DNA of 64,000 nucleotides from Bacteroidales bacterium (GTDB taxonomy: Bacteria > Bacteroidota > Bacteroidia > Bacteroidales > UBA932): the NCBI GenBank assembly GCA_017429765.1, contig JAFROJ010000074.1:6649-70648 (forward strand), given 5' to 3'. The notes beneath the pieces were generated by a model. That model was given only the letters and a program-made list of their open reading frames with translations, did not search any database and was not told the DNA's origin. Every line of letters starts with the position of its first letter. The stretch's first letter is position 1. Both the position numbers and the translations under genes were made by a program. This document shows positions 8,602 through 39,203 of the stretch, piece by piece.

Positions 8602-9054
8602 TTATTTCTTGCCGAAGATACCTCCGAGGAGGCCACCGAGAAGCCCTGAGCCGCCGATTGAGCCGCCGAGGGCGATGATGACGTCGTTGATGTCCACCTT
8701 GCCGTCACCGTTCTGGTCCTTGAAGAGTTTAGTGACTCCGCCGAGGACAGTGGGGATGAGGGCGAGGAGGGACTTGTTGAGGACAGATCCGAGATTGAGG
8801 TTCTTCAGGATGTTGTTCGTGAAGAGACTTCCGGCGAGGGAGGTCACAGGGCTCTGGGTGGCGGAGGTCTTCCCCGTCAAGAGATCGGTGATGATGTTGA
8901 TTCCTCCTTTGCTGGTGGCTGTCTTCTTGAGACTGCCAAGGATAGAGTCTGAGAGTCCTCCGAGAACCTGGTTCTGGAGATTAGCGGGAATCTGAACCCC
9001 GCCTGCGGCGGCGCTCACCTGCTGCTTGATCACATCCGCGATTGAGAATGCCAT
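8602..9054 (-). CDS. Hypothetical protein, DUF937-like, with an EF-hand-like loop
   Basis: 150 aa; DQNGDGKVDIND loop; Gly-rich C-terminus GGLLGGLLGGIFGKK. Confidence 0.6.
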   Translation of the reverse strand: MAFSIADVIKQQVSAAAGGVQIPANLQNQVLGGLSDSILGSLKKTATSKGGINIITDLLTGKTSATQSPVTSLAGSLFTNNILKNLNLGSVLNKSLLALIPTVLGGVTKLFKDQNGDGKVDINDVIIALGGSIGGSGLLGGLLGGIFGKK

Positions 9055-9088
9055 TGCTTTGTGGTTTTGAGAGTTGGATAATATTCGT

Positions 9089-11146
9089 TTATAAAAACAG
9101 ATCGAAGTAGTCAGTGACTTTGTCCATCAAGTGTATCCTCCATCTTCCGGCGACATTGTGCTCGGAGAGGGGATAGGGGAAATAGTCCATCTGGGTGCCG
9201 TTCTCTATGCATTTCTGGACGAAACTGAGGCTGTGCTCCCAGACCACCGTGTTGTCGACGGCGCCCTGGCAGATCAGGAGTTTCCCCTTGAGGTTGGCCG
9301 CGTTCTCGATGAGACTGGTCTCCTTGAAACCCTCGGGATTAGTCTCCGGGGTGTCCATGTAACGCTCCCCGTACATGATCTCATACCATTTCCAGTCGAT
9401 GACAGGACCGCCCGCCACACCGACCTTGAAGGTCTCGGGATAGCTGGTCATCAGGGAGATTGTCATGAAACCGCCGTAGCTCCAGCCGTGAACACCGATC
9501 CTCTCGGAATCCACGAAAGGCAGGGACTTAAGCATGTTGATCCCGACCATCTGGTCCGCCATCTCGGCCTGCCCGCAGTGGCGGTGGATGACTTTCTCAT
9601 ATTCAGCGCCCCTGTTGGGTGTGCCGCGGTTGTCCTGGACATAGACCACATAGCCTTTCTGGGCCATGAGCAGCTCCCACATCCGGACGCTCCCGAGCCA
9701 GGAGTCGTTGACCAGCTGGGAATGAGGGCCTCCGTAGACATAGAGCAGGACAGGATACTTCTTGGAGGGGTCGAACCCGGCGGGCAGGTAGAGCCTGTAC
9801 CAGTTGTCGTATTGGCCGTCGGCGCTTTTCACCGTGCCCAGCATGATCTTCCCGGTCTTGAAAGCCTTGAGAGGGTTCTCGGCGCGCCCGAGCTCCCTGG
9901 TCATCTTCCCGTCGAGGGACTTGACGCAGGTCACGGAAGGCACGTTGAAACTGCTGTAACGGTCGATGAAATATTTATAGCCCGGGCTCAGGGACACGCT
10001 GTGCCACCCTTCCTCCGCGGTGAGACGGACGGACTTGCCGATCTTGGCCTTGGCGATGTTGGCCGGGCCCTTGCGGGGCTTCAGGCCGGTGACCTGGATC
10101 TTGAACAGATGGTTCTCGACAGGGGAGACCTCGGCGGAGGTGTAGTAGATGTTGGTGCCGTCGTTGTCGAGGTACTGGACATCGGCGTCAACCTCGGTCA
10201 GTCTCCTGACAGTGCCGAGGGTGTCGCAGAGGTAAAGGTTCCTGTAACCGTCCCTGACCTCGGTCCTGTAGAGGAACACATAGGTGTCCTTGATGAAATG
10301 AAGCGGGTCGGAGGGCTCGACGTAGCGGGGATCCTCGTCCTCGAGGAGAGTCCTCACGAAAGAGCCGTCGCAAGACCGGTACATGTTGAGTCTCACATGT
10401 TTCTGCGACCGGTCCAGGACCTGTATGAATAAATATCTGTCGTCCGGGGACCAGCTGATGTTGGTCAGGTAGCGGTCGTAGCCGAAGTCGGTCACGTCGC
10501 ACCAGACGGTTTTCCCGCTGGCGAGGTCGTATACTCCGAGGGAGACCTCCTCGCTTTCCATTCCGTTCATCGGGTATTTGATGCTCTTGAGGGTGCCCGT
10601 GCGGGTGGAGATGTCAAGTAGAGGGAAATCTGTCACCCGGCTCTCGTCCTTGCGGTAGAAGGCGAGCTTGTCGCCGGAGGGAGACCAGAATATTCCCCCG
10701 TTGATCCCGAACTCGTTGCGGCTGACAGCTTGCCCGTAGGTGATCTGGTCATTCTCATTCACAGCCACCGCGATCTCGGTACCGTTATTATTAATGTAGA
10801 GGCTCTGCCCTTTAGTGTAGGCGGTGACACCGTTCTTGTTGGGAATCGCCCCCCGGGTCATGCGCCTTGGCCCCTGCGGGCCCTGGGGCCCGGCCCCGTT
10901 GAACTCGACCTCCTGCCCTGTGGCGGCGTTGTAGGCCTTCATCGAGCGTCCCTCCATGAGGATGTAGGTGTTCTCGTCCGCCCATGATGCCATGATTGTC
11001 TGGGGTCTTGTCCCCATTCCCATGACCGCCTCTTCCATGGTCATCATCCTTCCCTCGTTGTTCTCGGGATGGACCGCGACGACCCCTGTCTGCGCCCGCG
11101 CCGCCACCGGCAGCGTCAGGGCCATGATGATAAGGAACTTCTTCAT
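9089..11146 (-). CDS. Dipeptidyl peptidase IV family S9B serine peptidase
   Basis: Signal peptide, DPP-IV N-terminal propeller (FWSPSGDKLAF), GWSYGG nucleophile, and Asp/His motifs GAVDNTV and EHNV. Confidence 0.93.
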   Translation of the reverse strand: MKKFLIIMALTLPVAARAQTGVVAVHPENNEGRMMTMEEAVMGMGTRPQTIMASWADENTYILMEGRSMKAYNAATGQEVEFNGAGPQGPQGPRRMTRGAIPNKNGVTAYTKGQSLYINNNGTEIAVAVNENDQITYGQAVSRNEFGINGGIFWSPSGDKLAFYRKDESRVTDFPLLDISTRTGTLKSIKYPMNGMESEEVSLGVYDLASGKTVWCDVTDFGYDRYLTNISWSPDDRYLFIQVLDRSQKHVRLNMYRSCDGSFVRTLLEDEDPRYVEPSDPLHFIKDTYVFLYRTEVRDGYRNLYLCDTLGTVRRLTEVDADVQYLDNDGTNIYYTSAEVSPVENHLFKIQVTGLKPRKGPANIAKAKIGKSVRLTAEEGWHSVSLSPGYKYFIDRYSSFNVPSVTCVKSLDGKMTRELGRAENPLKAFKTGKIMLGTVKSADGQYDNWYRLYLPAGFDPSKKYPVLLYVYGGPHSQLVNDSWLGSVRMWELLMAQKGYVVYVQDNRGTPNRGAEYEKVIHRHCGQAEMADQMVGINMLKSLPFVDSERIGVHGWSYGGFMTISLMTSYPETFKVGVAGGPVIDWKWYEIMYGERYMDTPETNPEGFKETSLIENAANLKGKLLICQGAVDNTVVWEHSLSFVQKCIENGTQMDYFPYPLSEHNVAGRWRIHLMDKVTDYFDLFL

Positions 11147-11544
11147 TATTCAGGTGTTGTTACTGAGATGATTCTGTCTACCACGTGTTTTTGCATCCCT
11201 CTCCAGGGAAGGGCTCCAAGATACTCTTTGTAGTGCAGCTCGACAGTCTTCCCGCCGCACCTCATGAGCTCGTTGGCTATCTCCTCGTCTTTGACCGAGA
11301 AATCGAAGATGTAAGACTGGATCGTGGCTGTGCCTCCGGTCTTGGGGACAGATCCCTTGAACCCCGCCTGGATCAGCCTCCCCTCATAAGTCTTCCAAAC
11401 GTAGCCTTTGTAGGTGAACTGGTTGAGTTCCCCGGCTTTCACCCCGTCGCCGAACACGAAGTAGAACTTGATGTAGACGAACAATCCCGCCGCCACCACA
11501 AGGCAGGCGATGATCCAAAGAAGGATTTTCTTTCCTGTTGACAT
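11146..11544 (-). CDS. Conserved Bacteroidota hypothetical membrane-anchored protein
   Basis: One N-terminal TM helix; GYVWKTYEG and YKEYLGALPWRG motifs; start-stop junction with the DPP-IV gene. Confidence 0.7.
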   Translation of the reverse strand: MSTGKKILLWIIACLVVAAGLFVYIKFYFVFGDGVKAGELNQFTYKGYVWKTYEGRLIQAGFKGSVPKTGGTATIQSYIFDFSVKDEEIANELMRCGGKTVELHYKEYLGALPWRGMQKHVVDRIISVTTPE

Positions 11545-11554
11545 GATAGTAATG

Positions 11555-12679
11555 CTATTTCACTGTGTTTCCGGTCATCTCCCATCCCGTCACTGTCGAG
11601 ACCACGGGAATGACCGTGTAAGCTATCTTGGTGTGTCCGGACCCGTTCGGATGCCCGTCGGCTCCGAGGTCGCCTGTCTCGTTGTGGACAGTGGACGAGA
11701 GCGCGACCAGGCTGATTTTCTTCAGGCCGCTTGAGTCGATCGCTTTCCTGATGTAGACCTCCTGAAGCGGGTCGTGTTTCGGGACCATGCAAAGGATGGG
11801 GTGATCCTCGCCATAGAAGTCCTTGATCTCTTGGAGAAGCTGGATGTAGTTCTTGACGAACACTCTTTCGGAGGGTTGCATCCTTGTGGAGAAGTCGTTG
11901 GTTCCCAAATAGATGACAGTGATGTCAGGCCTTATGGAGCCAGGCTCCCAGTTCCCCTCCCTGACCGTGTCGAATGTCTGGAGATAACGCTCCGGCATGT
12001 AATAGTCCTTGACATTGCCGTTGTAGTTCCTGGCCACGCCCATGCCGGAGTGGGCGACCACGATCTGATCCGCCCCGAAATATCTCGCCGTCATGCAGGC
12101 GTAGGTCAGGTTCTGGTTCTCAGTCTCAGGGGAGAAGCGCTCCTTGTTCGAGGCCTCGGTGCCGTAGCCGCACGTGTAGGAGTCGCCGATGAACTCGATG
12201 ACCCGGTCTTTCGGAGGGTCGGCTTGGAGGAAGACCCCGTCGGTGTGGAACTCCTTCACGGTGGTGACTCCCTGCTCACCCTCAGTGCGTTTCTGGAGGA
12301 TAACCTGATGGACGGCGGCTTTCGAGCGGCGCCCCGTCCCTGTGAGGGCCCTGACCTCCTCTTTACTGAATATCACCATCGTGGTGTCGGCCCCGGTCAC
12401 GGTCAGGACCTTGTCGGGAGCCGAGTCCATGTCCTTGTCGATCCAGACGTTGTAGTGGTTCCTCTTTGTGTCGGAGACTTTGAGGCTCAGGTCGTCACCC
12501 ATGAAGCGCACCCTGAGATACACCCCGGTCCAGTCGAAGGAGACATTCCCATCCCTGACTTCTGTCCTGCCGATGTAAGTGACTCTGCCGTCGGATCCTT
12601 TCATGATCTCGCACCAGAGAGATGATTGGGCGAGCAGGAGGGCGGACAGCAGGCACAGGAAATATTTACATGTTCTCAT
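11555..12679 (-). CDS. SGNH/GDSL esterase, CE2-like (acetylxylan esterase type)
   Basis: Signal peptide; YIGRT..FDWTG N-terminal domain; FIGDSYTCGYG, LGTNDF and DGHP motifs. Confidence 0.85.
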   Translation of the reverse strand: MRTCKYFLCLLSALLLAQSSLWCEIMKGSDGRVTYIGRTEVRDGNVSFDWTGVYLRVRFMGDDLSLKVSDTKRNHYNVWIDKDMDSAPDKVLTVTGADTTMVIFSKEEVRALTGTGRRSKAAVHQVILQKRTEGEQGVTTVKEFHTDGVFLQADPPKDRVIEFIGDSYTCGYGTEASNKERFSPETENQNLTYACMTARYFGADQIVVAHSGMGVARNYNGNVKDYYMPERYLQTFDTVREGNWEPGSIRPDITVIYLGTNDFSTRMQPSERVFVKNYIQLLQEIKDFYGEDHPILCMVPKHDPLQEVYIRKAIDSSGLKKISLVALSSTVHNETGDLGADGHPNGSGHTKIAYTVIPVVSTVTGWEMTGNTVK

Positions 12680-12717
12680 AAGCGCTTTGAAACATATAAA
12701 GTTAAACAAGATTTTCG

Positions 12718-13626
12718 TTAAAACAAAGCCCGGCTTCTCAAAGCCCGCCCCAGGGCGCTCCTAAGGCGATGGAGGTTGATTCCCAACCTTTTGACGGAAT
12801 ACAACCGGCGGTAGTCCCTTTGTTTCAGGAATATGTCGGAGCGGAACATCTCCATTCTGAGTGCGATAGCCTTGTGGTAGCGGCCTGAGGTGTACTCATC
12901 CAGGCAGGCGAGCATTCTTATCAGGGTCTCCTTGTTGGCTATGATATTCACGCCTTTATGCCTCCGGGTCCAGGATCCCTCGACGTTGAAACGGTAAACC
13001 GACATCGGGTCGTCCAGGTACACCATCCCGCCCCGTAGGGATCCCTGGATGGCGAGGACATAGTCTATCGTGATGATGTCCCTCATCGGGGTGTTCTCAA
13101 GGTAGACCTTCGACCTGCACATGACGGAGGAGGTGGCGCAGAGGTTGGCCCCGCCTCCGAGGATGACCTTCTCGACCGTTATGATCCCGCTCCGCCACCT
13201 CGGGGCGACCCATCCCTTGAACTTCCCGTCCACGCGCCTCTCCGCTTTGTGGGAACAGATGTCGGCCTCCGGGTGGGCCTCAAGGGCCTCCACCTGTCTC
13301 TGGAGCTTTAGAGGGTCTGTCCAATAATCGTCCCCCTCGCAGAGGGCTACATATTCCCCCCTGACCAGGGGGTAGATGAATGTCCGCGCGATCTTGACCC
13401 CGCGGGAGTACTGGTTCTCTTTCTGGAGGACAGCGCGGATGAGCCGGGGGTATCTGGCTTGATATTCCCGGACAATGTCGGCGGTCCCGTCGGTGGAGGC
13501 GTCGTCGTGGACAATCACCTCGAAGGGGAAACCCGTCTTTTGCGAGACGAAGCCTTCGAGGGCGTCCCGGATGTAGCTTACATGATTGTAAGTCAAGCAG
13601 ATGACTGTCACTTTGATCTCATCCAT
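12718..13626 (-). CDS. Glycosyltransferase family 2
   Basis: VTVICLTYNH, IVHDDASTDGT and YVALCEGDDYW motifs. Confidence 0.92.
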   Translation of the reverse strand: MDEIKVTVICLTYNHVSYIRDALEGFVSQKTGFPFEVIVHDDASTDGTADIVREYQARYPRLIRAVLQKENQYSRGVKIARTFIYPLVRGEYVALCEGDDYWTDPLKLQRQVEALEAHPEADICSHKAERRVDGKFKGWVAPRWRSGIITVEKVILGGGANLCATSSVMCRSKVYLENTPMRDIITIDYVLAIQGSLRGGMVYLDDPMSVYRFNVEGSWTRRHKGVNIIANKETLIRMLACLDEYTSGRYHKAIALRMEMFRSDIFLKQRDYRRLYSVKRLGINLHRLRSALGRALRSRALF

Positions 13627-14326
13627 GGCGGCCTTCGATCAGGGTGTAATCGTCCAGCATTGCAGCGAGAGCCTCCCTGGAGTTGCACATGATGGCGTCC
13701 ATGATGGACAGCCCCGGAACGAACGAGGAGCAGGGTTGGGGATATTCAGGGAGACCGGATTTGAGGAACAGAAGCTTGATCCCTCTCCGAGCGAACTCTT
13801 CCGGATCGTAAAGCCTCATGCCGCCGATGGCGTTGATGTAGGTGTCGGCGCCGGTCCTGGCGCAGAAGTCATAGATCCGCTCTTCCCTCTTGAACCGGTT
13901 GTTCCCTAGGAGGTCCGAGGTCCGTAGCAGGGGAGTGGTGATCCCGAGACAGGAGCAAACCTCCCTGATCGAGTTTTCCAGGAATAAGGAGAGATTCCGC
14001 TCGGGAAAGCTCAGCACCCTCTCCGCCAGGGCCATCCCGGTGTTGAAAAACGGAGCCTTGTGATAGGCCATCTCCAGGGTCCTGAGTTTATTACCCTTGT
14101 CGGGAGGAACGATCTCCATGTCCTTGATCAGCTTGAAACTGCTCTGTCCCTTCACCTCTATCCGGAAAAAGGCCTCTTTCCCGTTGACAAGAATCCTGTT
14201 GCGGGTGATCCATCCTTTCCTGATGAAATTGTAGTCGTCGGAGATCAGGAAAAGATCGGCCGCCTTGATCAGCTGCCACCACCCCAGATAGGGGAAAAAG
14301 TATGGTTGGTTGGCGGCCAGGATCAT
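13619..14326 (-). CDS. WbqC family protein
   Basis: NQPYFFPYLGWWQLIK, DD.NF.RKGWITRNRI, YHKAPFF, YINAIGG, PGLSIMD motifs; ATGA overlap with the upstream stop. Confidence 0.92.
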   Translation of the reverse strand: MILAANQPYFFPYLGWWQLIKAADLFLISDDYNFIRKGWITRNRILVNGKEAFFRIEVKGQSSFKLIKDMEIVPPDKGNKLRTLEMAYHKAPFFNTGMALAERVLSFPERNLSLFLENSIREVCSCLGITTPLLRTSDLLGNNRFKREERIYDFCARTGADTYINAIGGMRLYDPEEFARRGIKLLFLKSGLPEYPQPCSSFVPGLSIMDAIMCNSREALAAMLDDYTLIEGRHG

Positions 14327-15495
14327 AACACGTCGCAATATGGAAGGATTTCGGGGTCGTCGGTCAGCAGGGGACAGGCTTTCCTGTCGTCACCCACATT
14401 GGTCACGGGGAGGCTGGAGGTCCTGAACAGGCCGGAACCGAAATAGCGGTCATCGACGCATAGCATCATCCCGCAAAGGTAGTCGTCATATTCATCACCT
14501 TCCCAGATTGTCCTGAACGTACGTTGCTTGATGAATGGCTGTATGACCATCCCATCGAGGCTAAGCCCGTTCCATTCCTCCTCGGAGGTGAGTGGACCGG
14601 CCTTGACCCCCTCGCTTTTGCCGAGACGGAAGGGCTTGAGAATGAATCCGTTCTTATTCTCCTTGACCTCTGTGGCGATCTCGTCGGCCTCGGGGGTGCC
14701 GCCGACCCATGTCCTGATGGCGTGGGAGCGAAGGAAGGCGGTCTCCTCACCTGTGAGGCATCTGCCCGTGAAACTGTCCTCGAACCACAGCCGCATGAAC
14801 CTCTTGTCATGGAGAAGGAAGATGTTCCTGAAGTCAGCGCTCATCCCAGCGTCCGCCATCGCCTTGACCGTGTCCATGCTGAAAGACAGGATGTCGTTCT
14901 GGTTCAGCGCGCTGATCACGAAGGCGCGGGAAGACCATTCCTTCCTCCGAGACTCGACCTCCGGAGCCTCTATGACGTTCACCTCGTGCCCGAGCCTCTC
15001 GTAGAACTCTTTGTAGAGCCGGATCTCGTTCGTCCGGTCGGCGCTTTTCAGGACGAATATTCTTTTCCTTCCTCCCGGAAGCCCGGCCATGTAGTCCATC
15101 AGGCTGGAATATTCAGACTCCCTGGACCGTCCGGGGAAGCGGGCCATGAAACGGTCCGCCGCCTCCTCGGCGAATCTTGACATGAATATCCCGTGACCGA
15201 AGAAGCGGGAGGTGATCTCGCAGATCCTCAGGTTCCCTTCGGTGTCGATGAGGTAGTCTGGCCTCCACGTGCCGGCTTTGAAAGGGAATAGGTCTTGATA
15301 TTCAAGTATTCCCAGATCTTTTTCTCCCAGAGGCATCCAGCCGGGGACATAGTCTCTCCAGTTGAGGGCAAGATGCTCGGCGCAACGGTAGAGAACCCTG
15401 TGCAGCTCGGCGAGCTCCTCCCGGCGGCCGCCGGTGATGACCACGGGTCTGTCGTGGTACCAGCGGAGATAGTAATCTGTGAGGTCGCGGATCAT
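14323..15495 (-). CDS. ATP-grasp amide ligase (glutathionylspermidine-synthase-like / circularly permuted type)
   Basis: RPDYLID..LRICEITSRF, LLHDKR, LKP..LGKSEGV and VIQPFI motifs. Start moved to ATG 15495 (ATGA overlap with the radical SAM stop). Confidence 0.65.
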   Translation of the reverse strand: MIRDLTDYYLRWYHDRPVVITGGRREELAELHRVLYRCAEHLALNWRDYVPGWMPLGEKDLGILEYQDLFPFKAGTWRPDYLIDTEGNLRICEITSRFFGHGIFMSRFAEEAADRFMARFPGRSRESEYSSLMDYMAGLPGGRKRIFVLKSADRTNEIRLYKEFYERLGHEVNVIEAPEVESRRKEWSSRAFVISALNQNDILSFSMDTVKAMADAGMSADFRNIFLLHDKRFMRLWFEDSFTGRCLTGEETAFLRSHAIRTWVGGTPEADEIATEVKENKNGFILKPFRLGKSEGVKAGPLTSEEEWNGLSLDGMVIQPFIKQRTFRTIWEGDEYDDYLCGMMLCVDDRYFGSGLFRTSSLPVTNVGDDRKACPLLTDDPEILPYCDVL

Positions 15496-16712
15496 TTCCC
15501 GAAGAGTCTTGTCTGGTAGCCGAGGCACTGGAAGCCGTTCCGGTTGATCTCGGGGATCATCGAGGAGGGGATCCCGAGTTGTTTGCGGACCCAATAGCAA
15601 ACGCTGACGCTCATCCCGATGGTGTCGGTGTAGTCCATCATCCGCCGGATGCCCCCGACGCTCAGTTCCCGGTCAGGGGCGGTCCTTGCCCTCTGCTTGC
15701 GGTGGTCGGCGTTGGAGGGCTTCAGGTAGGCCTCGTAGAGCTGACGCTCCATGTCCTTGTCGAAGGCTCCAAGATACTGTCCGAGCATCGCCAGGTTCTC
15801 CATGCAGACGGTGAGGAACTCTGGCTTGTAATTTATTATCCCTTCGCCTCTCAGGATGTCGAAGAACGATTTGATCCCCTCGTCGTTGAGACAGGGGGTG
15901 AAGATGGGCTGGACCAGGGCCGAGTCCGCCTGGACGCCTCTCCCGGCGCAGATCCGGACAGCCCTCATCCTTTCCTCGATAGGGGCCGCATAGGGCTCGA
16001 TCAGATCCCTGAAAGCCGGCGGCATTATTGAGACGCTGGTGTTGAACTGCATCCTGTCCCTCAATTTCCCGAACAGGTCCAGGATAGTCTCTCCCTCGTC
16101 CTCTATCAACAAATGCCTCGCTCCGGCCTTTGAGGCGATGAAAAGCCTTGCTTTGGACTCGGGATTCTTCTCGAAATGGCTTATGAACTCCCTGAGTACC
16201 CTGTGGGCCACGCCCGTGAGCAAGGTGGCCTCCTGGAAGGCCTCTGTCTTCGGGGAGAAATAGTAGTAGTGGGGTTTGTTCTCCGACCCCGGGCCATTCT
16301 TTTCATCCAGCAATCTCCTGACATAGAGGTGGTAATCCAAGTCCACCACGAGTTCCCGCTCGTGGACACCGTCGGTCACAAGGCAATATTGGCAGCCGAT
16401 CCCGCATCCCTTGACCGGGTTGATCTCGTAGGTCAGGGTAGGGCAGCGGCCGGTGTAGTTGTGGATCTCGGTCTGAACCGCTGAGGGATCCCCCCTGGTC
16501 TCCCGGAAGCGGGGCTTCGGGATGAGGGAGCGGCTCCCGAACCGCGACTTGAAGACCATGCTCCCTCGCCGAAGGGCTTCCAGGGCTTCCTCGTCGGGAT
16601 CCACGTCGGCCCCAAGGGCCTTGAGGTAATAAGAATCTACAACCCGGGGGGCGAAACCCTCCAGGTTGTAGACATCAGTTTCTCGGGAATATATGGGAGT
16701 ATAGCTTCTCAT
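15492..16712 (-). CDS. Radical SAM protein, SPL/Rv2578c-like
   Basis: EINPVKGCGIGCQYC (CxxxCxxC) and IEPYAAPIEERMRA, which is typical of the SPL-like subgroup. Confidence 0.85.
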   Translation of the reverse strand: MRSYTPIYSRETDVYNLEGFAPRVVDSYYLKALGADVDPDEEALEALRRGSMVFKSRFGSRSLIPKPRFRETRGDPSAVQTEIHNYTGRCPTLTYEINPVKGCGIGCQYCLVTDGVHERELVVDLDYHLYVRRLLDEKNGPGSENKPHYYYFSPKTEAFQEATLLTGVAHRVLREFISHFEKNPESKARLFIASKAGARHLLIEDEGETILDLFGKLRDRMQFNTSVSIMPPAFRDLIEPYAAPIEERMRAVRICAGRGVQADSALVQPIFTPCLNDEGIKSFFDILRGEGIINYKPEFLTVCMENLAMLGQYLGAFDKDMERQLYEAYLKPSNADHRKQRARTAPDRELSVGGIRRMMDYTDTIGMSVSVCYWVRKQLGIPSSMIPEINRNGFQCLGYQTRLFGK

Positions 16713-16729
16713 CCGCTATACCTCCATGG

Positions 16730-17755
16730 CTAATTAGCCATCAATTGCGGCAGGAAGGTACTGAACACGAGCACGACAAGTCCTATCACAAGCACGGCGA
16801 CAGTCTTCTTGGACACGCCCTTCCACTCCTTGAGGATGATACCCCAGACATTGGAGAAGGTGACGTTGAGAGCCATGAGGATGCACCAGCTGAAGGTGAT
16901 GAGGACAGGGTAGTTCGTGAGGAAGCCTTTGCCGAGGCTGAGGCCGAAGAACTGGCTGTACCAGAGCAGACCGGCCAGGGCGCAGAACAAAAGGTTGTTC
17001 GCCCAGAGATTGCCCTTGCGGTAGTCGCCCCAGGTCTTGTTCTTGCTGTTCTGGAAGAAGCAGTAGGCCGCATTGGTCAGGAAACCTCCGAAGGTGACAA
17101 GCATGGTGGCGGGCAGGGTCTGGAAGATGGGCTTGGTGCCGGGCAGGAACAGGTCCTGGCCGAAATTCAAGCCGATGTTGAAGCAGGCGCTCATGAAACC
17201 GGCGAGAAGGGCGACGGCTATTCCCTTACCGAAGTTGAAATCCTTGACAGCCTTCTTTTTCTCCTCCTCGGGCAGGGCGGCGGATTTCATCGCGCCGGCC
17301 ACACCGATGATGGCGATACCGATGATGGTGACGACGACTCCGACTATGACGGCGGTGGTGAGGTCACTGGCGTGTCCCGTGAAGACCGGGCCGAGGATGG
17401 CTCCGAGACCGGAGCAGGTGCCGAGCGCTATTGACTGGCCGAGGGCCACTCCGAGGTAACGCATTGATAGTCCGAAGGTAAGGCCTCCGATGCCCCAGAG
17501 CACGCCGAACAGGACTGTCAGCCAGGCGTCCTTGGGATGAGAGCTGATCAGGGACAGCAGATCCCCGAATGAACCGCCTGTCCCTGAGACAGAGAGTATC
17601 GAGCCGATGATCGGGAACACGAGCCAGGCGAAAACACCCTGGACGATCCAGAAACTCTCCCAACTCCAATCCTTGATCTTGTTGATCGGGACATAACTGG
17701 ATGACTGGCAGAAAGCGCCGACGGCGATGATAAGAAGTCCGATTACAAGTAACAT
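16730..17755 (-). CDS. rhaT: L-rhamnose/proton symporter RhaT family
   Basis: About 10 TM helices; WSWESFW, LWGIGGLTFGLSMRYLGVALG and WGIILKEWKG motifs. Confidence 0.92.
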   Translation of the reverse strand: MLLVIGLLIIAVGAFCQSSSYVPINKIKDWSWESFWIVQGVFAWLVFPIIGSILSVSGTGGSFGDLLSLISSHPKDAWLTVLFGVLWGIGGLTFGLSMRYLGVALGQSIALGTCSGLGAILGPVFTGHASDLTTAVIVGVVVTIIGIAIIGVAGAMKSAALPEEEKKKAVKDFNFGKGIAVALLAGFMSACFNIGLNFGQDLFLPGTKPIFQTLPATMLVTFGGFLTNAAYCFFQNSKNKTWGDYRKGNLWANNLLFCALAGLLWYSQFFGLSLGKGFLTNYPVLITFSWCILMALNVTFSNVWGIILKEWKGVSKKTVAVLVIGLVVLVFSTFLPQLMAN

Positions 17756-17831
17756 TTCGCGATGTGGTTTAAAAACATCCGCTATATTAGCGAAAATTCA
17801 CGAGAAATAAAAGACCCGCCCTGATGGAAAT

Positions 17832-17866
17832 AAAAAGAGCCGGGGATCGAATGATCTCCGGCTCTT
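17832..17866 (-). terminator. Intrinsic terminator downstream of the tRNA
   Basis: 14-bp stem 17835-17848 / 17853-17866 with a U-tract on the minus strand. Confidence 0.8.
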
Positions 17867-17895
17867 GTCTCATTGGCGCCTTTCGGCACCTTAAG

Positions 17896-17967
17896 TACTG
17901 GGTAGGAGAATCGAACTCCTATTGCAAGATTGAGAATCTTGAGTACTAACCGTTATACGAACCCAGC
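17896..17967 (-). tRNA. tRNA-Glu (anticodon CTC)
   Basis: Cloverleaf: GCTGGGT/ACCCAGT acceptor, CAAGA-TTCTCAA-TCTTG anticodon arm, AGGAG-TTCGATT-CTCCT T arm. CCA is not encoded. Confidence 0.95.
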
Positions 17968-17981
17968 GTTGTTCGGGACTG

Positions 17982-17989
17982 CAAATATA
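17982..17989 (-). promoter_or_regulatory. -7 box for the tRNA gene
   Basis: TATATTTG on the minus strand, 14 nt upstream of the tRNA. Confidence 0.75.
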
Positions 17990-18010
17990 TATAAAAAACT
18001 CAATGTTCCA

Positions 18011-18040
18011 AAAAAAAGTCGCGCACAGGCGCGACTTTTT
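18011..18040. terminator. Bidirectional-type terminator after rpmE
   Basis: A7-GTCGCGC-ACAG-GCGCGAC-T5. Confidence 0.8.
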
Positions 18041-18058
18041 CTTTCCGATCCGCGAAGA

Positions 18059-18310
18059 CTATCTCTTGCGGTCCTTGTATCTCTGGTAGAATTTGTCGAC
18101 GCGACCGGCGGTGTCAACGAGCTTGACCTTGCCAGTGTAGAAAGGATGAGAGGTGTTGGAGATCTCAACCTTCACAACCGGGTACTCGACGCCGTCCACC
18201 ATCAGAGTCTCTTTGGTCTCCGCGCAGGAACGGGTGATGAACACGGTTTCGTTTGACATATCCTTGAAAGCTACAAGGCGGTAGGTTTCGGGATGAAGTC
18301 CTTTTTTCAT
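18059..18310 (-). CDS. rpmE2: 50S ribosomal protein L31 type B
   Basis: MKKGLHP..YR.V.F.D, ISNTSHPFYTGK and DTAGRVDKF motifs; ATG at 18310. Confidence 0.96.
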   Translation of the reverse strand: MKKGLHPETYRLVAFKDMSNETVFITRSCAETKETLMVDGVEYPVVKVEISNTSHPFYTGKVKLVDTAGRVDKFYQRYKDRKR

Positions 18311-18355
18311 TGCTTTACGATCTAAATTGTACAATCTTTCGCTGTAAAAAGCCTG

Positions 18356-18363
18356 CAAAGATA
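18356..18363 (-). promoter_or_regulatory. -7 box for rpmE
   Basis: TATCTTTG on the minus strand. Confidence 0.7.
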
Positions 18364-18402
18364 ACCCTTTTCTCCGAATAATCAAGCGTTCACGTCATTT
18401 TT

Positions 18403-19467
18403 TCACTTGATCCGGTAGGGCTGGTCGTCGTAGAGAGAGTAGCGCTTCGCCTTCCGGATCCATTTCTGCTCCTCCAACTTGACATGCTCCCTGGCCTCCT
18501 GGAATCCTGTCTTCCCCTTGATGTAGCCGAGCAGAACCGGGTCGGCGAGTTTTTCCTCGAATCCGGGGAGGAGCTCAAACTGCGGGTATCTTTCAAGGAA
18601 GTACCTGATTAACTGGACAGTATGCAGCAGCGAGTGGTACTCGGCGCCTGGCTGGAGCATGATCTGATAGCCCTGGCAGCGCTGCCCCTGATGCCTTCCG
18701 GCGGCCGGGGTGAAGGTGCAAGGCCTCATCAGCGTGCCCTGGGGGGCGGGGATGATGTCAACCTGGCTGTGCTTTATGAAGGGGGCCCCGAAATATTCAT
18801 ACGGACGGGCGGTGCCTATGGCGGGAGTGATGGTCGTGTTGTTCCAGAGTCCTCCCCCGGGATACATCTGGCAGGTGAACATCCCGGGAATATCCGAGGC
18901 GGGGGCTATCGTCCAAGGCAACAGCTGCCTTGTCGCGTCGCTGGCCAGGGCGGAGATCACGTGCAGGGGGAAACCGGCCCCTATCTCATTGTAGTACAGG
19001 GCGCAAAGCTCCCCGAGGGTGAGCCCGTGACGGTGCGCCACCTTGGGGGTGTGCGGCTCGACCGCTCCCGAAGGCATCGAACCTTCCACGATCCTTCCCG
19101 CGGGGTTGATGTGATCGACCACGTAGAGGGAAGGGGAGTCCTCCATCCTCGTCATGATCTCCATGAGGCGGAAAACGTCTTTGGTGTAGTTGAAATACCT
19201 CGCTCCGGCGTCCTGGATCTCGACCACGACGGCGTCCAGCCTCTCCAGGTCGGAGGGCTCGAACGCGATGTGGTTGGTGCCTGGGGTGAGCTCGGTGTCC
19301 CTCGGTGTGAGGAGAACCGCCAGGTTGCCCCTGTCCCTGAACATGTCGTGCAGGTAGCGCCCCCGGGCGGTGTCCCAGCAGTTCTGGGTGCAGAAACACC
19401 CGACCCTGCCTCCGAGCAACGCCTTGTCCAGCTGGTCCTCCAGCGCCGTGGTCCTGAAAGAGAACAT
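18403..19467 (-). CDS. Divergent DUF1343 / NamZ-like (exo-beta-N-acetylmuramidase fold) protein
   Basis: EIQDAGARYFNY, DHINP, HRHGLTLGEL, YPG and GTARPYEYFGAP resemble DUF1343. PEHG and EGT motifs are absent; no signal peptide. Confidence 0.75.
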   Translation of the reverse strand: MFSFRTTALEDQLDKALLGGRVGCFCTQNCWDTARGRYLHDMFRDRGNLAVLLTPRDTELTPGTNHIAFEPSDLERLDAVVVEIQDAGARYFNYTKDVFRLMEIMTRMEDSPSLYVVDHINPAGRIVEGSMPSGAVEPHTPKVAHRHGLTLGELCALYYNEIGAGFPLHVISALASDATRQLLPWTIAPASDIPGMFTCQMYPGGGLWNNTTITPAIGTARPYEYFGAPFIKHSQVDIIPAPQGTLMRPCTFTPAAGRHQGQRCQGYQIMLQPGAEYHSLLHTVQLIRYFLERYPQFELLPGFEEKLADPVLLGYIKGKTGFQEAREHVKLEEQKWIRKAKRYSLYDDQPYRIK

Positions 19468-19468
19468 C

Positions 19469-20916
19469 CTACATCAAACTTTTGGCTATTCCTATCACCT
19501 CCGCGGCCAGGGCCTCGGCGGCCTCGAGTGTTGGGGCCTCGGAATAGATCCTGATGATCGGCTCCGTGTTGGAGCGACGGAGGTGAACCCACTCGCGCCT
19601 GTCCTCGAAACTGATCTTGACCCCGTCCTCGAGGTTGATCTCCTCTGAGGCGTAGACTTCTTTCAGCTTATTCAGGATCTTGTCTGTCAGGCTCTTGTCG
19701 GAAAGCTCTATCTTGTTTTTGGCGATGTGGTACTCGGGATAGGTCTTCCTGAGCTCGCTGGCTTTCATTCTCTTCCTGGCGAGGTTGGAGAGGAACAGGG
19801 CGACGCCGACCATGGCGTCGCGGCCATAATGGAGGGCGGGGTAGATGACTCCTCCGTTGCCCTCGCCTCCGATCAGGGCGTTGGTAGCCCGCATCAGCGT
19901 GGTGACATTCACCTCACCGACAGCGGAGGCCTTGTAGCTTCCTCCGAAACTCTCTGTCACGTCCCGCAGGGCCCTGCTGCTGGAAAGGTTGGAGCAGGAG
20001 ACGGGAGCGTAGGGACAGGTCACCTCCTCGAGGCTGATGTCCTGGGCCTCGGCTATCCTCGCGGCCCTCTCGAAAAGATACGAGGCCACGCTGACGATTG
20101 TGTATTCCTCGCCGAAAGGCTCCCCGTCCTCCTGGATGAAGGCGAGACGGTCCACGTCGGGATCGACGGATATTCCCAGATCTGCCTTCTCCTGGACAAC
20201 AGCGGCGCTCAGGCTGGTCAGGTTGGCCGGAAGTGGCTCCGGGTTGTGGGCGAAGTCACCTGTCGGGGCGCAATTCAGGCGGACGCATTCAACCCCGAGC
20301 CTCTCGAGGAGTCTTGGCATTATTATGCCTCCGACCGAGTTGACCGCGTCAAGAACCACCTTGAAACCGGCCTCCGTGATGGACTCCACATCCACATCCG
20401 GCAGGGCCAGGACGGCGTCCAGATGCTCGTCGGTGTAGTCATGCTCGGTGACATGGCCGAGATCCTCGACCCCGGCGAACTCGAAGTCTCCCTTCCCGGC
20501 GACTTCCAGGATGGCCTCCCCCTCCTTGGCGGTGAGGAACTCGCCACGCTCGTTGAGCAGTTTCATGGCGTTCCAGTGGCGGGGATTGTGTGAGGCGGTC
20601 AGGATTATTCCACCGTCCGCGCCGGCGAAGGTGACGGCCATCTCGGTGGTCGGTGTCGACGCAAGCCCGATCTTGACCACATCGATCCCGCAGGCGACCA
20701 GAGTGCCGGTCACAAGGCTCTCCACCATTGGGCCGGAGAGCCTGGCGTCCCTTCCCACCACGACCTTGTACCTTTCCCCGTAAGGTTTCGGCTTCCTTTG
20801 GGGCAGGGTGGCGCTGTAGGCGTAGGTGAAGCTCACTATATCAACAGGAGAAAGCCCTTCACCGGGCTTTCCTCCTATGGTTCCCCGGATGCCGGAGATG
20901 GATTTGATCAGGCTCA

Positions 20917-37535: not shown

Positions 37536-38360
37536 TTAGTGTTGGAGCTTCTTGACCCTGAACCAAGACCAAAGGCCAAGTCCGCAGACGACTAAGATCA
37601 GCTCGACATTCGCCCAGAAGTTAATCCAGAAGTCGATGTTATCCGCGTGGTTGTTGAGCCAGGTCTCCATCCTGTCGCCGAAAGCGCCGAAGTCGACTGA
37701 CGAGATGATGGTGGAGATGACGGCGAACATGACAAAAGCAAGGACGAAGAGGACGATGATGGTTTTGGCCACCTTTCCTTTCTTGAATATCAAGGCTCCG
37801 AGAAGGAAGACGGACACGGCCTGTAGGGTCGCGGAGACAAATAGCCAGGCTCCTTTGGCGTTGAATCTGACAAAGGATTCAGTGTCAAGCTCGCTCCATT
37901 TCTTTATGATCGAGTCACCGCAACGATTGTCCGCCAGGCAGACCAGCGCGTCGCTGAGAAGATAGCCGCAGAAGAAGACGGCGGGGATGACGACCAGGCT
38001 GATCAGCATCATGGACAGGAACTTCTCCAACCTGGAGGCCGGAAGCTCGAGCCACTCCGACCCCTTGGCCTTCTCGGTGACGAAACCGTAGGATTTGGCG
38101 GGGAACGAGATCAGGAATCCGACTGTCATGATGGCGAACACGATGCTCCTTGGAGTGATCTGCGGACGCGCGAGAGGCGTCCCGGTGAACAGGGCGGAGA
38201 TCCCGTTCTGGCTCAGGCCGGAGAAAAACAAGAAGATTATGTAGAACGCGACGGGCCAGATCAACGGAGTGACCAGATAGATCGCGTTCTCCTTCCATTG
38301 TGACTTGAGATCGAAGGCGAGATACTTCCCGAAACGGTTGAGGTTGAATACATCGCTCAT
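37536..38360 (-). CDS. ABC-2-type permease-like membrane protein
   Basis: About 6 TM helices; LELPASRLEKF motif; follows the ABC ATPase gene. Confidence 0.8.
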   Translation of the reverse strand: MSDVFNLNRFGKYLAFDLKSQWKENAIYLVTPLIWPVAFYIIFLFFSGLSQNGISALFTGTPLARPQITPRSIVFAIMTVGFLISFPAKSYGFVTEKAKGSEWLELPASRLEKFLSMMLISLVVIPAVFFCGYLLSDALVCLADNRCGDSIIKKWSELDTESFVRFNAKGAWLFVSATLQAVSVFLLGALIFKKGKVAKTIIVLFVLAFVMFAVISTIISSVDFGAFGDRMETWLNNHADNIDFWINFWANVELILVVCGLGLWSWFRVKKLQH

Positions 38361-38375
38361 GACTATTCCTCCGTA

Positions 38376-39203
38376 TTATTTTTTGAACATATTCTTAATC
38401 AAATCCTTATGGGAATGGGCGGCGTTGAAGAGAGCTTCCATGTTGACCTTGCTGTCCTCGCCGTCGGGGTTAGGGCAGACTTGAAGGAAACCTCCGGGGA
38501 GCCGCTCGCTGTAGAGGGCGTCCTCGCGGAGCGCGGTGCCGTAGTCAAAGTACAGTTTGGAGGAGATTTCCTCGAGAGTGGCGTTCAGCAGCACGTCCCG
38601 CTTGTCAAGGATGATCACGGGGTCGATGATGTTCTCGAGGTCCCTCACCTGGTGGGTCGAGATCACGATCGTGGAGTCCTCTGGAGTGTATTTCACGATC
38701 GCCGCCCTGAACTGGGCCTTGGAGGGGATGTCGAGCCCGTTGGTGGGCTCGTCCATGAACAGGTACTTGGCGCCCGTGGCCAGGGCGAGGGAGATGTGGG
38801 TCTTCTTCAGCTGGCCGGCGGACATCTGGTTCATTCTCTTCCCGGGATCAGTCTCGAACTCCCTCATGATGACGATGAACTTGTCGTGGTCGTAAAGGGG
38901 CCAGAAACGCCCTCGCTCACTGGCGTAATCCTCAGCCTTCATCGCCGCGGGAGCCACCTCGTCGGGGAGGTAATACTGCTTCTCCAGCAGGGACGGGGCG
39001 CGGTCGAAAGGATCCTGGCCGTCAGTCAGGATACTCCCGCCGCTGACCTTCTTAAGGCCGCTGAGCAAAGTGAGCAACGTCGTTTTCCCGACTCCGTTCT
39101 CCCCGAGCAGGCCGTAGATCCTGCCCTCCTCGAGGACTGTCGAGATGTTCTTCAGCACCGGTGTTTTCCCGTAGCTGAAAACGAGGTCTTTGATCTCAAT
39201 CAT
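38376..39203 (-). CDS. ABC transporter ATP-binding protein
   Basis: GENGVGKT, SAGQ and MDEPTNGLD motifs. Confidence 0.93.
   Translation of the reverse strand: MIEIKDLVFSYGKTPVLKNISTVLEEGRIYGLLGENGVGKTTLLTLLSGLKKVSGGSILTDGQDPFDRAPSLLEKQYYLPDEVAPAAMKAEDYASERGRFWPLYDHDKFIVIMREFETDPGKRMNQMSAGQLKKTHISLALATGAKYLFMDEPTNGLDIPSKAQFRAAIVKYTPEDSTIVISTHQVRDLENIIDPVIILDKRDVLLNATLEEISSKLYFDYGTALREDALYSERLPGGFLQVCPNPDGEDSKVNMEALFNAAHSHKDLIKNMFKK

Follow-up and report, generated by a model that had tools for sequence, protein, structure and literature searches.

We examined four neighbouring minus-strand genes in a 64,000-nucleotide stretch of a rumen Bacteroidales genome (assembly GCA_017429765.1, contig JAFROJ010000074.1, positions 6,649 to 70,648; this whole stretch is called the window below), which encode a radical S-adenosylmethionine (radical SAM) protein, an ATP-grasp protein, a WbqC-family protein and a family 2 glycosyltransferase (GT2). 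Together they are probably the window's copy of a gene module, composed in its full form of radical SAM, ATP-grasp, WbqC, GT2 and DegT-family aminotransferase genes, that adds an unusual acyl or peptide-like group to an amino sugar of a surface polysaccharide. An earlier annotation made from the DNA letters (the original prediction) had described the four genes as joined by overlaps, and the coordinates and all three junctions were verified on the sequence. The radical SAM stop and the ATP-grasp start share an ATGA (15492-15495), the ATP-grasp stop and the WbqC start share another (14323-14326), and WbqC and GT2 overlap by the 8 bp ATGGATGA (13619-13626). A mechanical list of open reading frames (ORFs) runs two of the genes up to upstream TTG codons; the lengths of homologues and the genes called on identical public contigs support the internal overlapping ATG starts.

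We found that this gene set recurs in many other genomes. An alignment of 13 ATP-grasp sequences was scanned against 185,579 species-representative genomes, which gave 188 confirmed loci, and ORFs were called in the best 80 of these and searched with the window proteins. The radical SAM gene was recovered in 79 of the 80 loci and WbqC in 77, and the four loci that lack one or the other all lie at a contig edge. A GT2 gene was found within 10 kb in 56 of the 80 (adjoining WbqC in 38), and a DegT-family sugar aminotransferase gene within 10 kb in 37. Two look-ups that started from radical SAM proteins returned the same five genes, with the radical SAM gene divergently transcribed in one of them. 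The commonest order, that of uncultured Bacteroidales, was radical SAM, ATP-grasp, WbqC, GT2 and DegT. The junctions recur as well: the 4-bp overlap of ATP-grasp and WbqC in 62 of 77 loci, an overlap of 4, 8 or 11 bp between radical SAM and ATP-grasp in 41 of 77, and one of 8 or 4 bp between WbqC and GT2 in 31 of the 38 loci where the two adjoin. Because they recur in other genomes across phyla, these overlaps exceed chance.

Failure of the radical SAM and ATP-grasp pair to co-occur with WbqC and GT2 elsewhere had been named as a check on the proposed set, and the pair does co-occur with them (the triad of radical SAM, ATP-grasp and WbqC in 77-79 of 80 loci). The four genes therefore stand as a translationally coupled cassette, but the conserved core is the triad. 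GT2 is a frequent accessory (56/80), and DegT is the usual fifth member, which the window's clade lacks. The set had also been described as unrecognised from any known pathway, and our searches of PDB, Pfam, NCBIfam and the full-text literature likewise found no described or characterised pathway that links these families.

The assignment of the cassette to glycan modification, also proposed originally, gained support from gene context, as DegT, Wzx, Wzy, initiating phosphoglycosyltransferase and UpxY genes flank it in other genomes. In Prevotella sp. P6B1 (locus L076), the only cultured carrier seen, the triad lies inside a Bacteroidota capsule locus, as it does in eight related loci. The order in this type of locus is UpxY antiterminator, initiating phosphoglycosyltransferase, triad, DegT, ATPgrasp_ST, Wzx, acyltransferase, GT2, Wzy and GT2. 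A Bacteroidota capsular locus was accordingly recognised around the Prevotella-type copies (L069-L083) and not around the copy in the window. The order in Lachnospiraceae was GT2, Wzx, DegT, WbqC, radical SAM, ATP-grasp and MATE transporter. When the DegT proteins of five loci were compared with NCBIfam, the best model in four of the five was DesI (dTDP-4-keto-6-deoxyglucose 4-aminotransferase), which suggests that the neighbouring DegT makes a viosamine-like 4-amino-4,6-dideoxyhexose. This is the type of sugar for which WbqC was first invoked, in Escherichia coli O121.

Distant relatives of the ATP-grasp protein (33-41% identity) were found near some or all of WbqC, DegT, GT2, Wzx, sulfotransferase and phosphoglycosyltransferase genes, and no radical SAM gene was found near them. 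Because WbqC, DegT and GT2 are kept in these distant loci although the radical SAM gene is missing, the radical SAM enzyme appears to contribute an additional tailoring step. The older unit would thus be WbqC, ATP-grasp and GT2, with or without DegT, to which the radical SAM gene was apparently added in the clade that includes the window. Two other features of the distant loci were noted. In L086 (1113-3125) and L087 (580-2592) the DegT protein is 670 aa long, with approximately 290 extra C-terminal residues that have no Pfam match on record, and a sulfotransferase gene lies upstream of it. In L090 (9347-9895) and L091 (7480-8028) an exosortase (EpsH) gene directly follows the ATP-grasp homologue in a locus that also has WbqC, DegT, Wzx and sulfotransferase genes, which recalls a published idea connecting amino-acid-modified sugars with exosortases.

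We then considered what the individual proteins indicate about the chemistry. The ATP-grasp protein had no match in a local Pfam copy, nor in Pfam or NCBIfam at E up to 0.01, and a precomputed PF28486 (AnkG_N) assignment is present on it and on all of its listed homologues. A profile built from 45 ATP-grasp sequences matched the fungal Cp1B chain 9cjn in PDB at E 5e-37, and eukaryotic glutathione and homoglutathione synthetases at E 1.6e-5 to 2e-3. By these profile matches, the protein belongs to the lineage of Cp1B, AnkG and the eukaryotic glutathione synthetases. A single-sequence AlphaFold2 model was unusable (mean predicted local distance difference test score, pLDDT, 42), and the fold assignment is that of the PDB profile search. 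Cp1B condenses a dicarboxylic acid with an amine (an amino acid) into an amide with release of ADP, and alanine at its R139, D141, E163 or N165 abolishes or strongly reduces activity (PMC12568646). In the alignment, Cp1B R139, D141 and E163 correspond to R78, D80 and E93 of the window protein, all three of them invariant, and Cp1B N165 corresponds to T95. The conservation of these residues indicates that the protein is probably an active amide ligase that forms an acyl phosphate.

This enzyme had been called similar to glutathionylspermidine (GSP) synthase, a description that did not hold, as no GSP-synthetase model or chain was matched and the lineage is instead that of Cp1B and glutathione synthetase. 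Chains of GSP synthetase, YgiC and YjfC were all absent from the PDB profile search with the ATP-grasp family at E up to 10. YgiC and YjfC are among the structural neighbours of Cp1B (PMC12568646), and the resemblance to GSP synthetase is therefore at the level of the fold only. The fungal ATP-grasp amide ligases Cp1B (PDB 9cjn; E-64) and AnkG (NK13650) and the glutathione synthetases thus share their lineage with the window enzyme, which differs from Cp1B in being bacterial, approximately 120 residues shorter and in carrying T for N165. It also differs from both fungal ligases in location, as the cassette enzyme sits in polysaccharide loci and not in a secondary-metabolite cluster.

Since the only characterised relatives of the ATP-grasp protein make small pseudo-peptides, it could be argued that the triad makes a diffusible small molecule other than a glycan, either a pseudo-peptide like the Cp1B product E-64 or a polyamine conjugate. 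A MATE exporter gene after the triad in Lachnospiraceae would fit this, as would the triad standing alone in Fibrobacter beside saccharopine-dehydrogenase-like and arginine decarboxylase genes. We regard this explanation as quite improbable, because the WbqC family belongs to polysaccharide loci, most lineages have DegT, GT2, Wzx, Wzy or UpxY genes as neighbours, a dedicated GT2 subfamily travels with the module, and the Fibrobacter context is limited to one or two lineages. Polyamine conjugation, a candidate raised by that context, was kept as a minor rival only. The Fibrobacter triad was noted at 11509-14696 in L001 and 11985-15247 in L033, and the genes adjoining it are of types that belong to polyamine synthesis.

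The WbqC assignment was upheld by a full-length match to PF08889 well above the gathering score (210.3 bits against a cut-off of 21.3; E 4e-62; residues 7-220 of 235). An AlphaFold2 model made with 61 homologues gave, with very high confidence, an alpha/beta protein (pLDDT 95.2; predicted template modelling score, pTM, 0.92). A likeness to the class I catalytic domain of tyrosyl-tRNA synthetase (TyrRS) was rejected as too weak for interpretation (TM approximately 0.39), and a sequence search of PDB with WbqC returned nothing informative. WbqC is presumed to catalyse a step that acts on the amino sugar. For WbqC/WbnG of the E. coli O121 and Shigella dysenteriae type 7 O-antigens, glycyl transfer onto the 4-amino sugar Qui4N has been proposed. 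The window protein is of the same family, and DegT aminotransferase genes likewise adjoin WbqC in other genomes; unlike those O-antigen proteins, it is tied by a 4-bp overlap to a Cp1B-like ATP-grasp gene and travels with a radical SAM gene. A Streptomyces operon pairs WbqC with a dedicated prolyl-tRNA synthetase (ProRS) and tRNA (PMC10404621), which by analogy hints that WbqC uses aminoacyl-tRNA and is taken here as a lead only.

The fourth protein matched PF00535 at E 1.9e-20 over residues 7-166 and carries the acidic motifs HDDAS and EGDD, in agreement with its original assignment to GT2, and it has no obvious transmembrane segment. Its subfamily was recovered in distant loci with ATP-grasp and WbqC genes at 31-39% identity over 71-89% of its length, and the other GT2 proteins there barely match it. 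Judged by this pattern, it is the dedicated, co-evolving transferase of the module.

The radical SAM protein carries the motif CX3CX2C at C103, C107 and C110, which is invariant in 74 sequences from Bacteroidota, Fibrobacterota and Bacillota. By itself the window protein scored 17.7 bits against PF04055, under the Pfam cut-off of 29.5, and 14 of the 14 family members tested matched this model (best E 3.7e-9). From the motif and these matches, the protein is assigned to the radical SAM superfamily. All 14 members also matched the COG1533-type NCBIfam models PA0069 and Rv2578c (best E about 1e-10), at 20-30 bits (approximately 28 for the window protein) against cut-offs of 360 and 430. It had been predicted to resemble spore photoproduct lyase (SPL); of this, a distant tie to COG1533-type families stands, but there is no detectable similarity to solved SPL, and the window protein does not reach the thresholds of SPL family membership. 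The SPL/COG1533 families (PA0069, Rv2578c and 'mobile pair protein B') are its nearest curated relatives and share the cluster motif form NP..GC...C.YC, whereas the cassette enzyme has four extra invariant cysteines and a context of glycan synthesis, not DNA repair.

Across the 74 sequences, 157 of the 406 radical SAM positions were at least 97% conserved. In addition to the motif cysteines, C90, C255, C372 and C396 are invariant and C303 is nearly so; C90, C255, C372 and C396 may hold a second, auxiliary Fe-S cluster. The protein is, by its conservation and model scores, a new and very conserved subfamily. It was noted that the radical SAM proteins of Prevotella, Fibrobacter, Lachnospiraceae and Erysipelotrichales carry a charged-rich insertion of approximately 45 residues after window residue 140 (columns 177-221 of alignment A3; carriers L076, L033, L067, L050, L061 and L079), which the window's clade lacks. 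Approximately 1.9 kb past one radical SAM copy there are ScmC-like, PqqD-like and ABC-transporter genes (L173, 9078-11863) that resemble a peptide-maturation set, and this adjacency is probably incidental.

The conservation of the radical SAM protein bears on the main alternative account of its role, in which it acts directly on an NDP-4-amino-4,6-dideoxy sugar (NDP, nucleoside diphosphate) by deamination, epimerisation or C-modification, as DesII does, and WbqC and the ATP-grasp enzyme then acylate the product. Identity across families and phyla stood at 60-68% for the radical SAM protein, with the ATP-grasp protein at 49-60% and WbqC at 37-56%. The radical SAM protein is thus far more conserved than its partners, a pattern in keeping with a small substrate common to all carriers, for example an NDP-sugar. 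DesI is the best-scoring model for the neighbouring aminotransferases, and the product of DesI is the substrate of the radical SAM enzyme DesII. No DesII-type model was matched by the cassette protein, however, the only curated relatives of which are of the COG1533 type. Loci without the radical SAM gene retain DegT, WbqC, ATP-grasp and GT2, so the amino sugar is apparently used as such there. On balance we consider this account unlikely, and we return to the reading in which the module builds and installs an unusual acyl group.

The pathway that we propose for the module, the substrates, step order, radical reaction and acceptor glycan of which we infer, would run as follows. A DegT aminotransferase, encoded elsewhere in the genome in the case of the window, would convert an NDP-4-keto-6-deoxyhexose to an NDP-4-amino-4,6-dideoxyhexose of the viosamine type. 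WbqC and the Cp1B-like ATP-grasp enzyme would build an amide-linked acyl or aminoacyl (pseudo-peptide) substituent on the sugar amine. By analogy with Cp1B, the ATP-grasp enzyme would activate a carboxylic, possibly dicarboxylic, acid as an acyl phosphate, and WbqC would either contribute the initial aminoacyl unit or catalyse transfer onto the sugar. The radical SAM enzyme would carry out a single tailoring step, and its small, invariant substrate would be the acyl or amino-acid unit or else the NDP-sugar itself. The dedicated soluble GT2 would then move the finished sugar onto a lipid-linked surface polysaccharide (a capsule or an O-antigen-like glycan). A bolder version, which is tentative and which we would not yet favour, holds that this horizontally mobile module, confined to herbivore guts, makes a previously unseen kind of surface sugar, a 4-amino-deoxyhexose with a radical-SAM-tailored pseudo-peptide, by way of three families in which no bacterial member has been characterised: a WbqC of new fold that forms amides, a bacterial ligase of the Cp1B/glutathione-synthetase branch and a two-cluster COG1533-type enzyme with the first non-DNA substrate of its group.

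Several observations weigh against the proposed pathway. The Fibrobacter triad stands alone, with no GT2 or DegT, and the recovered loci of the window's own clade have no aminotransferase, flippase or polymerase gene nearby. The DegT proteins score 225-310 bits against the DesI cut-off of 650, far below equivalog level. A profile of 14 radical SAM family members searched against PDB at E up to 10 returned no SPL chain and no informative solved relative. For the WbqC model, Foldseek against PDB gave no match at E < 0.1 (best E 0.12), and a full-text literature search found no biochemical characterisation of the WbqC family. The steps are proposed from gene anatomy, protein families, residue conservation and genomic context in more than 80 genomes. 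RNA-labelled sequencing runs were considered as evidence that the cassette is expressed and were discarded, because they gave nearly the same figures as DNA-labelled runs. X8 and X7 come from one sample and have almost identical depths, variants and contigs over window positions 9000-19500, and X17 and X16 were matched by run size. The RNA-Seq PolyA runs X8 and X17 are near-duplicates of the DNA-labelled X7 and X16, and the public labels look unreliable.

Three characterised systems offer points of comparison. In desosamine biosynthesis, the DegT aminotransferase DesI is followed by the radical SAM enzyme DesII, which acts on TDP-4-amino-4,6-dideoxyglucose. The module likewise links a DesI-like aminotransferase genetically to a radical SAM gene in a sugar pathway; it differs in that its radical SAM protein has no similarity to DesII-type models, its DegT is far under the DesI cut-off, and it also holds two candidate amide-forming enzymes and a glycosyltransferase. 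In pyrrolysine biosynthesis, the radical SAM enzyme PylB makes an unusual amino acid and the ATP-grasp enzyme PylC joins it by an amide bond. A radical-made building block ligated by an ATP-grasp enzyme from an adjacent gene is the logic on which the original prediction was built. However, no sequence relationship to PylB/PylC was detected, PylC is of the D-Ala-D-Ala-ligase type, and the product there is a free amino acid and not a glycan substituent.

The third system is the Wbp/Vim pathway of Porphyromonas gingivalis and Tannerella forsythia, which makes N-seryl and N-glycyl diamino-uronic acid linking sugars (PMC7468200). It resembles the proposed pathway in placing amino-acid-acylated amino sugars with a defined role in the surface glycans of Bacteroidota, and differs in its unrelated enzymes (VimA acyltransferase-like, VimE a deacetylase), in its sugar and in the lack of any radical SAM or ATP-grasp step. 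Taken together, the module resembles by analogy the N-acylation branches of O-antigen and capsule sugar pathways and echoes the logic of PylB/PylC and DesI/DesII, and is a member of none of these. It is set apart by its unusual combination of enzymes, by how extremely conserved its radical SAM protein is, by a WbqC model without a solved structural relative, and by a spread across phyla in apparently one habitat.

The Vim pathway also raises the question of whether the product of the module is a sugar bearing an amino acid to which proteins become attached, on the model of the seryl or glycyl linking sugars of type IX secretion cargo or of exosortase substrates, or whether the module modifies a protein such as elongation factor P (EF-P). 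A precedent for this idea is that type IX secretion cargo in Bacteroidota is anchored by N-seryl and N-glycyl amino sugars (PMC7468200). Many self-contained five-gene modules lie outside capsule loci, an exosortase gene adjoins a distant ATP-grasp/WbqC/DegT locus, and efp overlaps the radical SAM start in one Bacteroidales clade; against these stand the unrelated enzymes of the Vim pathway (VimA, VimE), the absence of any sortase-like gene near the window's cassette, and the restriction of the efp adjacency to seven loci of a single clade with a PGKGP-loop EF-P. Such EF-P has been reported to be functional unmodified in Actinobacteria. We hold a role in protein attachment or modification to be highly improbable, and a system for modifying EF-P in particular was set aside on account of the single clade (L015-type) and its PGKGP-type EF-P. 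In these loci (L015, 8220-8783; L016, L018, L019, L021, L022 and L025), efp ends 14 nt inside the radical SAM frame, which has an apparent GTG start, and the EF-P has a PGKGP-type loop, in one Bacteroidales clade only.

We also assessed how the module is distributed and whether it has been transferred. Nearly all carriers among the best 80 loci are genomes assembled from gut metagenomes of ruminants or other herbivores, and where public runs contain the window's cassette they are gut metagenomes too, sheep and goat among them. Among the carriers are Bacteroidales families, Prevotellaceae, Fibrobacter (11), Lachnospiraceae (4) and one Erysipelotrichales bin. Proteins from other phyla resemble those of the window as closely as do proteins from other Bacteroidales families, with radical SAM identities to the window of 64-67% for Fibrobacter and 60-68% for Prevotellaceae. 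A neighbour-joining tree, made as a quick distance tree from the radical SAM and ATP-grasp proteins joined end to end, put Fibrobacter and Prevotellaceae each in two separate places, and the check for transfer by phylogeny thus gave a gene tree in conflict with taxonomy. Bin contamination is possible for single bins, but not for eleven Fibrobacter bins with long contigs.

Within the window's clade, the cassette lies between a gene for a RhaT-type sugar:H+ symporter and one for a carbohydrate esterase (family CE2) in ten genome loci. The metagenome contig L093 has the same synteny without the cassette (phosphoglucosamine-mutase-like gene, NamZ and RhaT, then CE2, small protein and DPP-IV), and it is homologous to the window up to exactly the RhaT stop codon and again from within the CE2 esterase gene. 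The cassette can be considered, from this distribution across phyla, the incongruent tree and the cassette-free syntenic relative, as a module that is mobile among rumen bacteria of three phyla (Bacteroidota, Fibrobacterota and Bacillota). The slot between RhaT and CE2 in L093 (3367-4422) holds a 351-aa gene on the opposite strand, the product of which has a signal peptide and a C-terminal phenylalanine and looks like an outer-membrane beta-barrel.

A GGAGGT lies 7 nt before the radical SAM ATG, as had been pointed out in the original prediction together with a weak hint of foreign origin; the motif is present, but the hint did not survive, as the site varies in relatives and the motif is common in the window (79 occurrences). 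The nine or ten closest syntenic relatives have GGCCG, GGAAG, GGTAG, GGATTG and others at this site, and the adjoining GTATAGCG is conserved. A foreign Shine-Dalgarno remnant was therefore ruled out. Strong Shine-Dalgarno motifs were seen only in the Firmicutes copies, as expected there, and the GC content of the cassette (0.575-0.577) does not differ from that of its flanks. The GGAGG reported before the ATG at 38360 is likewise present (in 38361-38375, minus strand); it precedes a gene for a 274-aa protein without a Pfam match, which follows an ABC-transporter ATPase gene (38376-39203).

The amino sugars of O-antigens and capsules commonly carry amide-linked amino acids and organic acids, and to our knowledge few of the enzymes that attach these groups have been identified. 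The module offers a compact, defined and highly conserved gene set in which to find such enzymes. If the proposed pathway is true, it would provide the first function and structure for WbqC, the first bacterial role for the Cp1B/AnkG ATP-grasp lineage, and the first substrate for a glycan-associated radical SAM enzyme of the SPL-like COG1533 group. The spread across phyla, with nearly all carriers from rumen or hindgut, would point to strong selection on cell-surface chemistry there, for which phages, protozoal grazing and host antibody are candidate pressures in the gut. The cultured carrier Prevotella sp. P6B1 provides an experimental entry point.

Table 1. Cassette genes and immediately flanking features, in window positions.
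Feature	Positions	Strand	Remarks
Radical SAM gene	16712-15492	minus	406 aa, ATG start
ATP-grasp gene	15495-14323	minus	390 aa counted from ATG
WbqC gene	14326-13619	minus	235 aa
GT2 gene	13626-12718	minus	302 aa
Spacer RhaT/radical SAM	16713-16729	minus	17 nt; holds GGAGGT (16725-16720) and GTATAGCG (16721-16714)
RhaT-type sugar:H+ symporter gene	16730-17755	minus	upstream flank, outside cassette
CE2/GDSL carbohydrate esterase gene	11555-12709	minus	downstream flank, outside cassette

The cassette is set in an ordinary Bacteroidales chromosome (Table 1). On the RhaT side there are V-type ATPase genes, a phosphoglucosamine-mutase-like gene, NamZ, ribosomal protein L31, tRNA-Glu and RhaT, and on the other side the CE2 esterase, a small protein and a DPP-IV-like peptidase. 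RhaT is probably co-transcribed with the cassette, because the gap between them is 17 nt and terminator-like hairpins occur only upstream of RhaT. The statement that no aminotransferase or flippase gene is adjacent could be extended, as no homologue of DegT, Wzx, Wzy, UpxY or an initiating phosphoglycosyltransferase was found across the 64-kb window.

Two minor features of the RhaT side were also noted. The tRNA-Glu gene (anticodon CTC; 17895-17967, minus strand) lies between the ribosomal protein L31 gene and RhaT with terminator-like hairpins on its flanks, and the contig depth of this region was far above its surroundings in all four metagenome runs compared with the window. The 11-mer TATAGCGGATG occurs twice on the minus strand, at 16710-16720, where it ends in the radical SAM start codon, and at 17776-17786, 21 nt upstream of the RhaT start; shuffled sequences gave a mean of 0.45 matches with at most one mismatch allowed. 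The upstream copy is part of a palindrome, CGCTA-n-TAGCG. The pair may be a regulator-binding site or a recombination footprint, and TATAGCG is kept at both sites in nine of ten syntenic relatives, with variable neighbouring bases.

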